Shown in pieces: positions 4,476 to 9,572 of a DNA stretch of 64,000 bases (its first letter is position 1; every line of letters starts with the position of its first letter). The notes beneath the pieces are model-generated. The model made no database searches and had not been told where the DNA came from. It saw only the letters and a list, made by a program, of their open reading frames with translations. The DNA lies in the IMG/VR virus record IMGVR_UViG_2778261631_000002; one strand, 5' to 3'. The DNA is from a virus (Duplodnaviria; Heunggongvirae; Uroviricota; Caudoviricetes). The translations under genes were made by a program, and so were the position numbers.

Positions 4476-4676
4476 TTATCTGCTGCCCGGCATTCTCTGT
4501 TTAAGCGCAACCATTTCCTGACGGCATAACACAGCAATAGCGGTCCTGACTCCAATTTGCTTACCAACCAGGTATTGCTTTACCTTGCGGCGACTCACGC
4601 CATCAAGAAGCATCTTTAACGCTTCACGGGACAATTTGTTGTATTTGCGTGCCATTAATCTACTCCGCAGAACCAT
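4476..4676 (-). CDS. Small basic hypothetical protein
   Basis: 66-aa ORF overlapping the 3' end of doc; true start may be the internal Met (MARKYNK). Confidence 0.3.
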
Positions 4677-5040
4677 ACAATCTACGTAACGTGTCGGCGA
4701 CAGAAGATACAGATATCTCGCCAGTCGCAGCGCCTACAGTAAGGTCTGCCAGTTCAGGTGAATCAAATACCTGCACCCCGTTACGGCGTAGAAATAACAG
4801 CGCACTGTTTAGCGCGGTACGCTTATTGGCATCATTGAATATATGCCCTCTCGCTGTAGCCACCAGGTAGGTGGCGGAGACTTCGAAAAGGTCGGTGATC
4901 TCTTCGTAGGCAACTCTGGCCTGAACTCTCCCGATAATGGCCTCTGCCCTACCCGGATCTGACATTCCCGGCAGGCCGCCGTAGCGGTTTATATTCGCAT
5001 CATGAAGCGCAATAAGTTCTTCCGGTGATATATGCCTCAT
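4660..5040 (-). CDS. doc: Doc toxin (death on curing), Fic-fold kinase
   Basis: 126-aa [28 protein letters not shown]... recognised as P1 Doc; 1-nt overlap with phd. Confidence 0.95.
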
Positions 5041-5261
5041 TATCGGTTAACCAGTTCCTTGTTGGTGGAGTCCAGGGTGTCAAACAGGGATGCAAATTCA
5101 GCATCCAGCGCCGCTTTTTTGTAGGCTTCGAAAGTAGCCTTGCTGACAATTACTGCTGGCTCACGGCCTCTGCGGGTGATTTCAACCTCTTCCCCGGCTT
5201 CAACATTGTTGAGCACTTCAGAAAGGTTGCCGCGCGCGGTACGGAAGTTAATGGATTGCAT
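5040..5261 (-). CDS. phd: Phd antitoxin (prevents host death)
   Basis: 73-aa reading from [32 protein letters not shown]; the ORF track adds two upstream codons. Confidence 0.95.
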
Positions 5262-5333
5262 AAACACCTCGTGTACTCGTTATGTGTACATAATTATAAA
5301 CTTCACAGGCATAAAGCACCAGCACTTTGCAGC

Positions 5334-5723
5334 TTAAATGACCGGACAATCATCAAACTCCCCACTCCGGGCATCATTGATGACATGAGTGATCACACCA
5401 AAAACAGCATTACTACCCGTGTAACCATCGTCATCTACTGGTAACGCCTCTTTCTTCCCGGTGCTTAAATCCTCCAGGTGCTGGCGCGGATACTTTCGGT
5501 ATCTCTTTATGCGATATTCACCCTCCATAGCGCACACAAGCAGAGAACCATCAACCGGAGTAAGCGAGGAATCAACCACCAGCAAAGCACCCTGCAATAT
5601 TCCCTCACGGTGATGGCTATCAGCTGCCCGCATGAAGTAGGTTGCTGATGGATGCCTGATTAGTTGCTGATCAAGAGAAATTCGGCTTTCAACATAATCC
5701 GCCGCAGGAGAAGGGAAGCCCAT
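5334..5723 (-). CDS. humD: UmuD'-like protein HumD (LexA/S24 peptidase fold)
   Basis: 129-aa ORF, size and position as P1 humD; perfect LexA box 20 nt upstream of its start. Confidence 0.8.
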   Translation of the reverse strand: MGFPSPAADYVESRISLDQQLIRHPSATYFMRAADSHHREGILQGALLVVDSSLTPVDGSLLVCAMEGEYRIKRYRKYPRQHLEDLSTGKKEALPVDDDGYTGSNAVFGVITHVINDARSGEFDDCPVI

Positions 5724-5742
5724 AGCGTTTTTACCTCAATAA

Positions 5743-5762
5743 TACTGTTCATTTATACAGTA
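5743..5762. promoter_or_regulatory. LexA (SOS) box TACTGTTCATTTATACAGTA
   Basis: CTGT-N8-ACAG with near-perfect dyad symmetry in the divergent humD / 5898 intergenic region. Confidence 0.8.
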
Positions 5763-5897
5763 TACATTAAAGAGACACCTTTGGTGCAAACGCGTTACGT
5801 ACATCAACCACCGCTGATGATTTTGTGCTCTTTGCTACTATTCATCACCGCGGGATCAGCGTAACCTCGTTGCCAATCAGTTAATAAGGAATTAGCT

Positions 5898-6482
5898 ATG
5901 CCTAATCGCATTCCTCTCGATCCTGTATTGCCCAAAAATTTTGACTGCACTCCTAACGAGAAACGCTCTAAAGCTCAGCTGGACGCCTGGTGGGACCATC
6001 CATATGGGGTTACACAACCTGACGGGAAAATTGTAGTTTATTGTCTGAATGGTGGGGCGTGGGACCGTCCATCCGTGCTTTGTTTGGCAGATAACTATGA
6101 TGAAGCCTGTGAACTTGCCGAAAGACAGCAGGCAAGCTGGGTAAAAACACGGTCTGAACCGACATTCATGTTTTCAAAAGAACCGCCATTTATACTGGCG
6201 AGGATGCCGCAGCGACCGGATCATCAACAAGAAATTGTTGCTGAATTTTCCTCAAGGGATGAGATGAATCTCTTCTCATTAAAGCAGGAAGAAAGGGATC
6301 GCGTCGAAGTGTCTCCAACTCTCGACCACAACCGGATGAACCTAGCCCAGCTCGCCTGGTACAGCAAAGAATTAGAGATGTCTATTGCCCGGCTTGAAAA
6401 CGAAAAAGCCGCTATCCAAGTCCAGCACGAAGTAGTTCTGAACCGGATTAGAGAAATGCAAAACGATAACAGGGGATTTTGA
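5898..6482 (+). CDS. Hypothetical protein, first gene of an operon divergent from humD (possibly LexA-regulated)
   Basis: 194-aa ORF 136 nt from the LexA box; C-terminal coiled-coil-like segment; no recognisable domain. Confidence 0.55.
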   Translation: MPNRIPLDPVLPKNFDCTPNEKRSKAQLDAWWDHPYGVTQPDGKIVVYCLNGGAWDRPSVLCLADNYDEACELAERQQASWVKTRSEPTFMFSKEPPFILARMPQRPDHQQEIVAEFSSRDEMNLFSLKQEERDRVEVSPTLDHNRMNLAQLAWYSKELEMSIARLENEKAAIQVQHEVVLNRIREMQNDNRGF

Positions 6483-6839
6483 ATGGCTAAAATCGAGTAC
6501 CATCGCGATCGCGGTAATTACCTGGAAATATACGATCATGAATCTCTTAACGATATCAACGATGCGTTATATGAATACTGTGAAAAAACGAGCATCACAG
6601 ATGCACCTGATGCATTTGTCGAGATGCCGGTATATCTCCGCGACATCTATGCAATACGAACACCGCCCGTATCGGTGATTCACATTGGCTATGTCCGCCT
6701 GTCCATCGAAGAAGATGAAGATCGTTATATCGTGCGCCACTATACATTGGACAGAAAAGAACTTCCTAATGAATGGAACATGAGTAATTTCTACAACGGT
6801 GAATATGGCTTAAAATCCGCTAATAATTTACGGTCATAA
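6483..6839 (+). CDS. Hypothetical protein, translationally coupled to the upstream gene
   Basis: 118-aa ORF starting at the TGAATG junction; does not resemble theta/Hot. Confidence 0.55.
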   Translation: MAKIEYHRDRGNYLEIYDHESLNDINDALYEYCEKTSITDAPDAFVEMPVYLRDIYAIRTPPVSVIHIGYVRLSIEEDEDRYIVRHYTLDRKELPNEWNMSNFYNGEYGLKSANNLRS

Positions 6840-6928
6840 TCTATACAGGCATGTATAACAACAACGAGCCTATTAGCTGTCAACAACGTTATTTCCTCAA
6901 ATAAGAAAAAGCAGAAAAAAAATTGTTT

Positions 6929-6949
6929 AAGGTCACAAATTGTGGCCTT
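6929..6949 (-). terminator. Candidate minus-strand intrinsic terminator
   Basis: Near-palindrome AAGGTCACAAATTGTGGCCTT; minus-strand hairpin is followed by an AAACAATTTTTTTTCTGCTTTTT T-rich run. Confidence 0.35.
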
Positions 6950-7694
6950 GATGGAGGAGGGAGGCTTATTGGCTATGGCTAAAAATCAAATTAGACACTT
7001 CATGTTGCTGTAGCTCATCAAGATCCGAGGCCACAAAACCTTTTCCGAAAAACTTCACAAGTAACTCACTAGCCGCATCATTGTCACCTATTACACGAAA
7101 GTCATACGGCAACGTCGCAAGTTGACGATGTAATCCTGCTGAGAAAGTCGAATCTAACAGCGCCCAGAATTCCCACCGCAGGATAATACTCGCCTCTTAA
7201 TACTGTATATATGTTGTTACGATATGTTTTTCTGTCTCTAAAAAAAGATGTTAATAGAATGCTAACCATTGAAGGGGATAAAAATATACAATTCCAACAA
7301 ACGTTATTTTTAACAATTTTTTTCTTTGCGTTGACTTTCCCGGACACCTTGTCTGACCGAAGGTGCGCGAAAGCCACTTTTTCCTTCCTGAGTTATCCAC
7401 AAAGTTATGCACTTGCAAGAGGGCCATTTTCTACATATTGTGGTGGCTAACAGATGAAATGAATGTAGATTAATTGAAGATAAGGAGAAAATTTGAGATG
7501 CAATCATGACGTTAATAGATAGGGTCTGCATTACAGACCCCACCCGCATCAAGGAATTAGCCGTTCCCTGATGTTTTTCCGAAAACATGTGCCGTAAGCT
7601 CACGTTAACGACTTTCATTCACCGAATCCAACTATATAGGGGTTGGGTTTCTACGTCAACGTGAGCAAGTGCACCTTTACATTTGACAAGGAAC

Positions 7695-7832
7695 CACCTG
7701 AATGAACGCTTTTTTTCAGTTCCTGAGTGCATTTTTAGATGCGCCTATTATTAGCCAGATTCTGGCTATTATCCTCATCATCGTTTTGATTTTGCTTTTA
7801 AGGTCAGTAAAAAATGGAATTATGCACTGGCT
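7695..7832 (+). CDS. Small hydrophobic peptide (45 aa), candidate membrane peptide or type I toxin
   Basis: ATG preceded by AAGGAACC; MNAFFQFLSAFLDAPIISQILAIILIIVLILLLRSVKNGIMHWLT; sits in an AT-rich palindrome-dense noncoding region. Confidence 0.25.
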
Positions 7833-7914
7833 TACTTAATGTTTCAGTGAAACATTAAAATCTCCTTGATGTGGAAACAATCATTTTCTGTATGTGCTGG
7901 TGGGCACCTGTAGT

Positions 7915-8277
7915 TCAGCTTTCGTTGGCATTTAACTTCGTCTTTGCTTTCTCCACCAGCAACTTCCAGATGCCTATTTCATTAGCAGCCGCCTTGATGG
8001 CGGCATAAAAAGCATCTTGCTGATCGTAACGCTGGATCTGTTTTTTCAGTTTTGCCTCCACCAATTTAATTTCATTACGTGCTTTCTGAAGCCGCATCAC
8101 CGCCCGGTTACATCTGTTCTTGTATAGCGTGTTAATCTCTGACAATTGCTTTAATTTACCAGCCTGACTGCGGATTATCGCCTCCCTGGCTTCTGCCGTG
8201 CGTCTCATCTGATCTCTTAAGAGTTCACCGTTTTCGATAATTCTTTCAAGGTGTTTGATGTGATCTGCAACTCTCAT
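7915..8277 (-). CDS. Hypothetical coiled-coil protein
   Basis: 120-aa ORF, last gene of the minus-strand operon; start overlaps the upstream stop. Confidence 0.5.
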   Translation of the reverse strand: MRVADHIKHLERIIENGELLRDQMRRTAEAREAIIRSQAGKLKQLSEINTLYKNRCNRAVMRLQKARNEIKLVEAKLKKQIQRYDQQDAFYAAIKAAANEIGIWKLLVEKAKTKLNANES

Positions 8278-9572
8278 ACTTCACCCTCGCTTGTATCACC
8301 AGCGTCCACCAACGACAATAAAGCCCTGGCCATCTTATGAACCAACAGTGCATCAATAATGCCAAGCGTATGCCCCGGCTTAATGTTTAATGCTGCCTCA
8401 AGATGACACCTTTCCAGACCGCTTTTCTCGGCTTGTTTATGATGATATGGCGTAATAACGTCGCCCAAAACACGGCTAATTCTTTCTCGTAATTGCTGGG
8501 TGCCAGCACACTTGATCGCTGTATCGTGGAGACGGTTAACCAGTTCGCGATAAACATGCGGCTTAATGCGGATACGTTCACCGGTGACGCCCTTTCCTGG
8601 CGCTGGCACCGAACTATCCGGAATATCCGGATAGTTGCCAGCCTCGTAAGCTACCCGCAGCCAGTGCATGAATGTTTCAGTGGACACACAACCACAGTCC
8701 ACATCGATTTTCCCGCGTTGCTGTTCCAGCCATTGCCCAAAATCCAACCTGTAAGTCTTACTTTGGCTTACAGGTTGGCTACCCTGAAGCATGGCAGCGT
8801 GGCAGGCATACTCAACGCCCTTAACTGCATCTGCGCAGTAGTTATAGCGATTGCATTCCACTAATTTCCGTTTGAGTTTTTCAATTGCCTGCGCGACATC
8901 AGCCTGTATTACAGGAACTGGCGGAACGGCTGTTTGCTCTCGAACGTCATTAGTCGCTATCGGTTCTGCTGCCAACTGACTGGCATATTTGTTAATGGTA
9001 ACGATAAGCTCTTGCTCAGCCTCATCCAGACAATCACCGATACCTCGCCTGTCACCGTCAAAATCATCGAAATCGGCACGAATCTTGGCAACCTTCAGGA
9101 TTGCGGACAACACCTCACTAGGAATTACCGGATAGTTGGTTGACGTTTCCGCGATTTCCCGAAAATTATTGGTTGACGAATTCTTGTTTTCCCGAAAGTT
9201 TCCGGACTGAAGCATGGCGGCGCGGCAGGCGTTCCAGCCATCTGCGTAACAATCTCTGTGTGTCTTGAAATATGTCACCGCCCTTGGTACATCGTTTACG
9301 TCTATTTCATCCGGCACAACCGGCGCAGGTGAGTCAGCATAAACAGGAATAACGTCCGGTTGCTCTTTATTGCTTTCATCCGTTAAAGCCCAGAATAATT
9401 TCCCGGCCGGATGTTTGAAAATATAAGCAACTGGTTCTGCTTCCAGCGATGCCAGAGCAATTCGTGCCAGTTCTTCCGCTTCTTCTGCTGGCAGTACAAC
9501 GTTGCTACCAGGTCCGTATGTTTCGCGCCACTGCTTGATTGTCAGTAGTCGCTCTTTGGTAATAGTGATCAT
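8274..9572 (-). CDS. Hypothetical protein with an internal duplicated Cys motif
   Basis: 432-aa ORF; repeated C-x-A-D-x(4-6)-C-x-A-A-M-L-Q segments. Confidence 0.6.
   Translation of the reverse strand: MITITKERLLTIKQWRETYGPGSNVVLPAEEAEELARIALASLEAEPVAYIFKHPAGKLFWALTDESNKEQPDVIPVYADSPAPVVPDEIDVNDVPRAVTYFKTHRDCYADGWNACRAAMLQSGNFRENKNSSTNNFREIAETSTNYPVIPSEVLSAILKVAKIRADFDDFDGDRRGIGDCLDEAEQELIVTINKYASQLAAEPIATNDVREQTAVPPVPVIQADVAQAIEKLKRKLVECNRYNYCADAVKGVEYACHAAMLQGSQPVSQSKTYRLDFGQWLEQQRGKIDVDCGCVSTETFMHWLRVAYEAGNYPDIPDSSVPAPGKGVTGERIRIKPHVYRELVNRLHDTAIKCAGTQQLRERISRVLGDVITPYHHKQAEKSGLERCHLEAALNIKPGHTLGIIDALLVHKMARALLSLVDAGDTSEGEV

Follow-up and report, generated by a model that had tools for sequence, protein, structure and literature searches.

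A LexA box upstream of humD in a P7-like phage-plasmid probably serves humD and not the divergent lxr and upf93.6 genes

The 64-kb stretch of DNA analyzed here (the window) belongs to a P7-like member of the P1 phage-plasmid family in which a LexA (SOS) box lies between humD, the gene for a UmuD′-like protein, and a pair of divergently oriented genes, lxr and upf93.6. Across related elements the box tracks humD and not lxr, and the best minus-strand promoter candidate overlaps the box. On the basis of these comparisons we conclude that the box is probably the operator of humD, and we find no support for control of lxr by LexA. We further consider it fairly probable that both parts of a joint picture hold, namely that the box is the humD operator and that lxr and upf93.6 constitute an accessory cassette that is modular, separate, and expressed independently.

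Identity and layout of the locus

Positions 5300 to 7000 of the window shared 99.9% identity with Enterobacteria phage P7 (AF503408) and 97.5 to 98.8% with P1-family records, and positions 5300 to 9000 matched E. coli plasmids such as NZ_CP117721.1 at 100% identity. The P7 reference record carries an IS903 downstream of this region, whereas the window is without that IS903. The absence of this IS903 and the complete match to the E. coli plasmids from 5300 to 9000 set the window apart from the P7 reference. In this region the P7 record annotates phd-doc, humD, a LexA protein_bind feature, upf94.2, and upf93.6, and the site is labeled "LexA: regulation of humD expression." An identical box in P1 (NC_005856) carries the label "LexA binding site in the regulatory region of lxr and humD." The first gene on the plus strand is there called lxr, "LexA regulated function" (humD and lxr being P1_gp103 and P1_gp102). 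The label "LexA regulated function" has since spread into annotations and screens, and the name lxr already embodies the guess of an SOS operon made in the original prediction for this DNA. The P1 and P7 records already contain the LexA site, humD, and both plus-strand open reading frames (ORFs); the locus is an ordinary, known one, and its identity is established.

The phd-doc addiction module (4660..5261, minus strand; ORFs together with the P7/P1 annotation) lies downstream of humD (5334..5723, minus strand), and lxr, named upf94.2 in P7 (5898..6482, plus strand), is followed by upf93.6 (6483..6839, plus strand). Homology between P1 and the window stops about 50 nt before the lxr stop codon. 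Beyond that point P1 has hot, a theta homolog, on the opposite strand and convergent with lxr, whereas P7-type elements have upf93.6 in that place. The second plus-strand ORF had been predicted not to be the theta homolog expected from P1, and this was borne out: Upf93.6 gave no match to PF06440 in Pfam, and hot-bearing relatives carry the PF06440 domain on the opposite strand. There is no theta homolog here because the window is P7-like and not P1. The variable region from pap to lxr, to which the two plus-strand genes would belong, is a recombination hot spot of P1-like elements (PMC6906374, PMC9603915), and a CRISPRi screen found both lxr and humD to be dispensable for P1 lytic growth (PMC10695390).

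The LexA box and the putative humD promoter

The box, TACTGTTCATTTATACAGTA (5743..5762), matches the E. coli LexA consensus TACTGT(AT)4ACAGTA at 17 of 20 positions. Both arms, TACTGT and ACAGTA, are perfect, so that the 20-bp palindrome retains an intact CTGT-N8-ACAG. No other site in the window came within three mismatches of the consensus, and 100 shuffles produced none. The looser pattern CTGT-N8-ACAG was found twice against 0.72 expected, and thus only the full 20-mer is significant. The site had been described beforehand as a perfect, textbook SOS box; its arms and its uniqueness agree with that description, but "perfect" is slightly generous because the central AT-rich spacer holds three mismatches. 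The box had also been placed 20 nt upstream of humD, and the adjacency is as predicted, with a gap of 19 nt to the start codon (5721-5723, minus strand). That a LexA box stands in front of humD is corroborated by the P1 and P7 records, both of which annotate the site as LexA, and the box is kept next to the gene start at orthologous loci.

The product of humD is a UmuD′-like protein of 129 residues with an S24-peptidase fold. It matched PF00717 at 36.1 bits (cutoff, 23.3) and the UmuD-like PHROG 811 at an E value of 4e-55, and its identity was 100% to P7 HumD and 99% to P1 HumD.

The top minus-strand promoter candidate between 5650 and 6300 in a PWM scan was TTGCAC-N19-TATACT (5759..5789, minus strand), with a putative −35 element at 5789-5784 and a putative −10 element at 5764-5759. 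It scored 8.35 against a median best score of 6.9 over 311-nt segments of the window; the PWM was made from general consensus frequencies, and its scores are relative to this window background. The margin over background is modest, the 19-nt spacer is suboptimal, and a stricter consensus scanner reported no promoter close to the box on either strand. The promoter that the P1 record annotates as PhumD, inside lxr (window positions 6201-6227, TTGATG...CATCCT), was weaker than the candidate at the box. Conservation likewise points to the latter candidate, the −10 element of which overlaps the distal arm of the LexA box. When seven humD upstream regions were aligned (P1, P7, L023, D6, RCS47, CMS-2020a, and Cyrano), TATACT and the box arms were invariant in all seven, even with the flanks in Cyrano fully diverged. 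In six of these regions TATACT was preceded, at a distance of 19 nt, by TTGCAC or TTTCAC, to which Cyrano had no clear counterpart. With its −10 element at the box, a transcript would start within the box, as is usual where LexA represses. We infer that the invariant TATACT over the box fits a humD promoter that LexA would occlude.

In an uninduced lysogen, a LexA dimer bound at 5743-5762 would cover the −10 element of a weak humD promoter together with its start region. Upon DNA damage, RecA-stimulated self-cleavage of LexA would free the promoter, and HumD, which is UmuD′-like and needs no processing, would then be made and would join host UmuC in translesion synthesis. This role of HumD follows the P1 literature that the two phage records and PMC4713147 cite. 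The layout resembles that of the E. coli umuDC operator, in which a LexA box with perfect CTGT/ACAG arms likewise stands directly upstream of a UmuD-family gene, and that of a plasmid-borne umuDC operon (L022), in which the box is 20 nt upstream of umuD. It differs from E. coli umuDC in that humD encodes the already processed UmuD′ form and is a single gene with no umuC partner, and in that its promoter is a predicted one.

Distribution of the box with respect to humD and lxr

The presence of genes across related loci was determined by tblastn. A box stood 13 to 19 nt upstream of the humD ATG at every humD locus, namely, in P1, P7, elements with an lxr variant of 81% identity (L023-25), D6, RCS47, Cyrano, and CMS-2020a. 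The lxr gene is present and divergent in P1 and P7, which have the box TACTGTTCATTTATACAGTA, and in the elements with the variant lxr, which have TACTGTTTATTTATACAGTA. It is absent from the remaining humD loci: D6 and RCS47 have the box TACTGTTTATTCATACAGTA, with hot lying upstream on the same strand as humD, and the boxes of Cyrano and CMS-2020a are TACTGTATACACATACAGTA and TACTGTTCATTTACACAGTA, respectively.

Conversely, lxr loci that are without humD are also without a nearby box. Full-length lxr homologs in the Salmonella P1-like element L015 and in L028, neither of which has humD, showed no LexA-like box across the fetched locus. In L026/27, which have lxr and no humD, the sole box was about 1.8 kb downstream of lxr, before another gene. 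At loci that encode only the N-terminal domain of Lxr, no box was found near the lxr homolog on a Klebsiella phage-plasmid (L003-6), Pseudomonas plasmids (L007-10), an IncHI1B plasmid (L021), metagenomic plasmids (L029-32), or alphaproteobacterial conjugative plasmids (L033-35). In L022, the sole box was that of the umuDC operon, 5.8 kb from the lxr homolog. The box thus did not co-occur with lxr across relatives. The original prediction had held that the box probably controls the divergent operon as well, and the comparison speaks against this, as the box follows humD where lxr is missing and is itself missing at lxr where there is no humD.

Promoter candidates on the plus strand were also considered. 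All of those that overlap the box scored between 4.5 and 4.9, below the median best score of the window; among them were the hexamer pairs TTTACC-18-TATACA and TTACCT-19-TACAGT, at 4.5 to 4.8. The top plus-strand candidate was a putative extended −10 element, TGcTACTAT (5833..5841), which lies 71 nt downstream of the box and does not overlap it. The original prediction had raised the matter of a separate promoter for the operon between 5763 and 5897; a candidate is indeed present in that interval, but its score of 6.99 is about the background median, and the element is weak and speculative. No late promoter element of the P1 (Lpa) type was seen by eye upstream of lxr, with LPpac and LPhot from the P1 record as models. 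Expression of lxr and upf93.6 would most likely be driven by a weak promoter of their own downstream of the box, and the two genes would therefore not be directly repressed by LexA.

One alternative is that the box is a shared operator, such that a single LexA box represses both divergent units and lxr-upf93.6 is an SOS-induced accessory operon. The P1 annotators made this assignment when they attributed the box to both lxr and humD and named the gene accordingly, and the box does sit in a divergent intergenic region of only 174 bp, with weak plus-strand hexamer pairs overlapping it. Moreover, neither the PWM nor the consensus scan produced a convincing alternative promoter for lxr, and there is precedent in E. 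coli, where the divergent genes uvrA and ssb share one LexA box. The likeness to uvrA-ssb consists in the single box within a divergent intergenic region, but here there is no above-background promoter for the second gene over the box, the overlapping plus-strand candidates scoring as low as they do, and the box does not covary with lxr. In addition, 135 nt separate the box from the start codon of lxr, versus 19 nt for humD, and it is kept with humD when lxr is absent but is absent from every lxr context without humD. We therefore regard a shared operator as unlikely, though plausible, and favor the box as the operator of humD. LexA control of lxr is probably lacking. The comparative data tie the SOS box to humD alone, and lxr is thus probably misnamed as a "LexA regulated function."

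The lxr and upf93.6 genes and the families of their products

The two plus-strand ORFs exist as originally predicted, and the TGA of lxr (6480-6482) directly abuts the ATG of upf93.6 (6483). Shine-Dalgarno sequences were found 7 nt upstream of the lxr ATG (AAGGA) and 6 nt upstream of the upf93.6 ATG (AGGGGA). In P7-type elements, lxr/upf94.2 and upf93.6 would be cotranscribed and probably translationally coupled. The products are proteins of 194 residues for lxr, with an N-terminal domain (residues 1-130, here Lxr-N) and a C-terminal helix (residues 149-192), and of 118 residues for upf93.6, the latter acidic (pI 4.8). In agreement with the expectation that they have no recognizable domains, neither protein scored above threshold against Pfam, NCBIfam, PADLOC, or PDB sequences; both single-sequence and profile searches returned sub-threshold noise only, in which DUF7491, PKK, DUF7588, an oligosaccharyltransferase fragment, and FasL were discarded. 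Both belong to PHROGs of unassigned function, Lxr to 6164 (E value of 1.3e-135 over residues 1-194) and Upf93.6 to 5797 (E value of 5.9e-77). A match of these genes to well-known, conserved P1 proteins with defined roles would have weighed against the original prediction; the first is a well-known and conserved P1 gene, but it has no defined role. A literature search, with the primary P1 papers outside its scope, turned up no work on the function of lxr, upf94.2, or upf93.6.

The lxr and upf93.6 genes are independent of each other. P1 and L023-25 have lxr without upf93.6 and continue into the convergent hot; L026/27 also lack upf93.6 and continue into a gene for a 70-residue protein; and L028 and all of the loci with homologs of only the N-terminal domain are likewise without it. 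In L015 both genes are present, 15 nt apart, and are followed by the same 70-residue gene as in L026/27. Because lxr loci differ in having it, upf93.6 is a cassette that is either present or absent. Relatives of upf93.6 were in turn found without lxr on Salmonella ccdAB plasmids (L011-14) and on an IncN plasmid (L020).

This independence bears on the suggestion that lxr and upf93.6 form a toxin-antitoxin or toxin-immunity module. The two genes are small, adjacent, and apparently translationally coupled, and they lie close to the phd-doc addiction module. However, Lxr-N was found on 897 plasmids versus 186 for Upf93.6, and each occurs widely without the other, as in P1 on one side and on the IncN and Salmonella plasmids on the other. 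Moreover, no toxin, antitoxin, or defense-system profile was matched in Pfam, NCBIfam, or PADLOC. The toxin-immunity pair of the original prediction is thus contradicted by the occurrence of each gene without the other. As the two genes show no obligate co-occurrence, the toxin-antitoxin reading was dropped as already largely refuted by their distribution, and we consider it extremely improbable.

Lxr was 99.5% identical to P7 Upf94.2 and 93.7% identical to P1 Lxr over 189 residues, and its membership in the P1 Lxr family extends over the full length, including the C-terminal helix. A database search with Lxr returned 124 clusters. Residues 1 to about 130 recur at 50 to 65% identity as stand-alone proteins of 130 to 140 residues in Salmonella, Klebsiella, Enterobacter, Pseudomonas, Burkholderia, Xanthomonas, Bradyrhizobium, and Mesorhizobium, and the domain is thus spread over alpha-, beta-, and gammaproteobacterial plasmids. 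Of the 897 plasmids that carry Lxr-N by tblastn, 564 were conjugative. The family alignment showed invariant motifs WWD.P, CLNGG..DR, and RPD, that is, residues W31, W32, D33, P35, C49-L-N-G-G53, D56, R57, and R106-P-D108. A profile search of 1.84 billion representative proteins retrieved 472 clusters, many of which have an additional N-terminal helical module of about 55 residues and some of which have long unannotated extensions. Ten long members (304 to 408 residues) contained no informative Pfam domain, the sole match being a weak one to the N terminus of Glyoxalase_8. A confident AlphaFold2 model of Lxr based on the family alignment (pLDDT of 88) predicts a globular domain that begins beta-beta-beta-alpha-beta, followed by the C-terminal helix of 44 residues, which is restricted to the P1-like subgroup. 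Foldseek searches of PDB and BFVD with this model returned nothing at an E value of ≤0.001.

The Upf93.6 protein was 100% identical to P7 Upf93.6. Its family, with 18 clusters, was found only in Enterobacteriaceae, and its AF2 model is unreliable (pLDDT of 51) and too poor for a structure search. On the Salmonella ccdAB plasmids the relative of Upf93.6 is encoded after unrelated genes for proteins of 81 and 320 residues, the latter of which was considered as an Lxr relative and rejected. On the IncN plasmid, the gene for a relative of 38% identity follows a TrfB/ArdK-like regulator gene at a distance of 14 nt and has ssb and a DUF932 gene as neighbors, in a region that corresponds to the CUP-controlled leading-region regulon (the ardK operon; PMC5371602). 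The likeness of our locus to that regulon consists in this relative following the TrfB/ArdK-like gene. The P7 gene, by contrast, lies in an accessory region of a phage-plasmid, follows lxr and not a regulator, and has no CUP repeat.

The likeliest role for lxr and upf93.6, argued from guilt by association with the establishment and leading-region neighborhoods of plasmids, would be a nonessential function in modulating the host or in establishment. On alphaproteobacterial plasmids, traC-traD-traG and a gene for an SNase-like nuclease are followed by the Lxr-N gene and then by ParE/RelB and ArdC genes; on Pseudomonas plasmids, Lxr-N is encoded near RepA, SNase, and ArdC and near a translationally overlapping resolvase gene; and on IncHI1B plasmids, it stands beside restriction-modification and HNH genes. 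Relatives of Lxr-N also occur in strings of small unannotated genes with a MazE/PIN module. The anti-defense or accessory function of the original prediction is possible in light of these neighborhoods. A broader proposal would make Lxr-N a new and structurally unprecedented family of host-modulating proteins of mobile elements, acting in anti-defense, in modulation of SOS or repair, or in establishment through a highly conserved host target, with SOS timing in P1 and P7 conferred through the humD control region and with Upf93.6 as a second factor; taken as a whole, we consider this quite unlikely.

Another explanation is that Lxr acts in maintenance of the plasmid or prophage, and not on the host, as a regulator that binds specific DNA sequences or as a partition-like protein. 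The family is named "DNA-binding protein" in NCBI and UniRef, and the globular domain with its 44-residue helix could represent a DNA-binding head joined to a coiled-coil dimerization helix. The overlap of the Lxr-N gene with the start of the resolvase gene on Pseudomonas plasmids is also in keeping with this explanation. However, no basis for the family name was found, and the name fits poorly because the N-terminal domain is acidic (pI 4.95). Furthermore, Lxr matched no DNA-binding profile or fold, HTH and RHH included, and the C-terminal helix is absent from most members of the family. We therefore consider a DNA-binding role very unlikely and retain a host-modulating or establishment function as the likeliest one.

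The idea of an SOS-controlled divergent operon is weakened by the comparison, and the interest that remains is in the widespread Lxr-N domain. Lxr-N defines a large and highly conserved protein family of plasmids and phage-plasmids, has no detectable structural relatives, and is a reasonable candidate for functional screens for anti-defense and establishment. If Lxr-N is a true host-targeting factor, it would bear on the ways in which P1-like phage-plasmids and large resistance plasmids become established.

The interval downstream of upf93.6

Comparison with the P7 reference record (L001) indicated that its IS903 copy is absent from the window (window 7100-8280 versus L001 4804-5860), and the distance from upf93.6 to the upf90.8 homologue is 1066 bp shorter in the window than in that record. 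Two E. coli plasmids, NZ_CP117721.1 and NZ_CP074369.1, are 100% identical to window 5300-9000. An imperfect hairpin, AAGGTCAC-AAATT-GTGGCCTT, was located 3′ of upf93.6 (window 6927-6947). Because an A-run precedes it on the plus strand, the hairpin reads as a putative T-run terminator for transcripts from the minus strand. It went unflagged in the terminator scan of the window, and no intrinsic terminator on the plus strand was found 3′ of upf93.6.

Candidate regulatory sites in Salmonella P1-like elements

Salmonella P1-like elements that carry an lxr homologue and lack humD (L015, L026, and L027) share a perfect 8+8 palindrome, TTGTTTGTCAACACAAACAA (L015 3303-3322; identical in L026 and L027). 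It overlaps a −35-like hexamer, TTGTCA, and the lxr homologue starts approximately 90 nt downstream. The palindrome looks like an operator for a repressor other than LexA, and the repressor acting there is possibly the product of a divergent 93-aa gene. L026 and L027 also contain a strong LexA box, TACTGTGTTTTCATACAGTA, that differs in sequence (4832-4851) and that precedes, with a gap of 15 nt, an 88-aa minus-strand gene lacking annotation (4550-4816). The 88-aa gene could be another SOS-controlled gene in that lineage.

Architecture and gene context of Lxr-N proteins

Many members of the Lxr-N family (P0140, P0146, P0148, P0153, P0154, and P0172) have an additional helical module of ~55 aa at the N terminus, with the motif …LKR.AK……THS.ALE..AR.AGY.SWH.L…. 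The module matched the N terminus of Pfam Glyoxalase_8 only weakly, below the cut-off (E values of 1.6e-4 to 4e-3). In place of the module, Pseudomonas plasmids have an unrelated gene of 66 aa ahead of the Lxr-N domain. On the IncFIB/IncHI1B Klebsiella plasmid L021 (6001-6571), a region 40% identical to Lxr aa 136-190, corresponding to the C-terminal helix, directly follows the N-domain in a different frame, which suggests that full-length lxr is frameshifted or split on large plasmids of this type.

In the Pseudomonas RepA_C-type plasmids L007-L010 (6001-7040), the Lxr-N gene and the start of a serine resolvase gene have 4 nt in common, and thus the two genes are apparently translationally coupled. 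The overlap and apparent coupling hint that Lxr-N is connected with multimer resolution or site-specific recombination in this Pseudomonas plasmid lineage.
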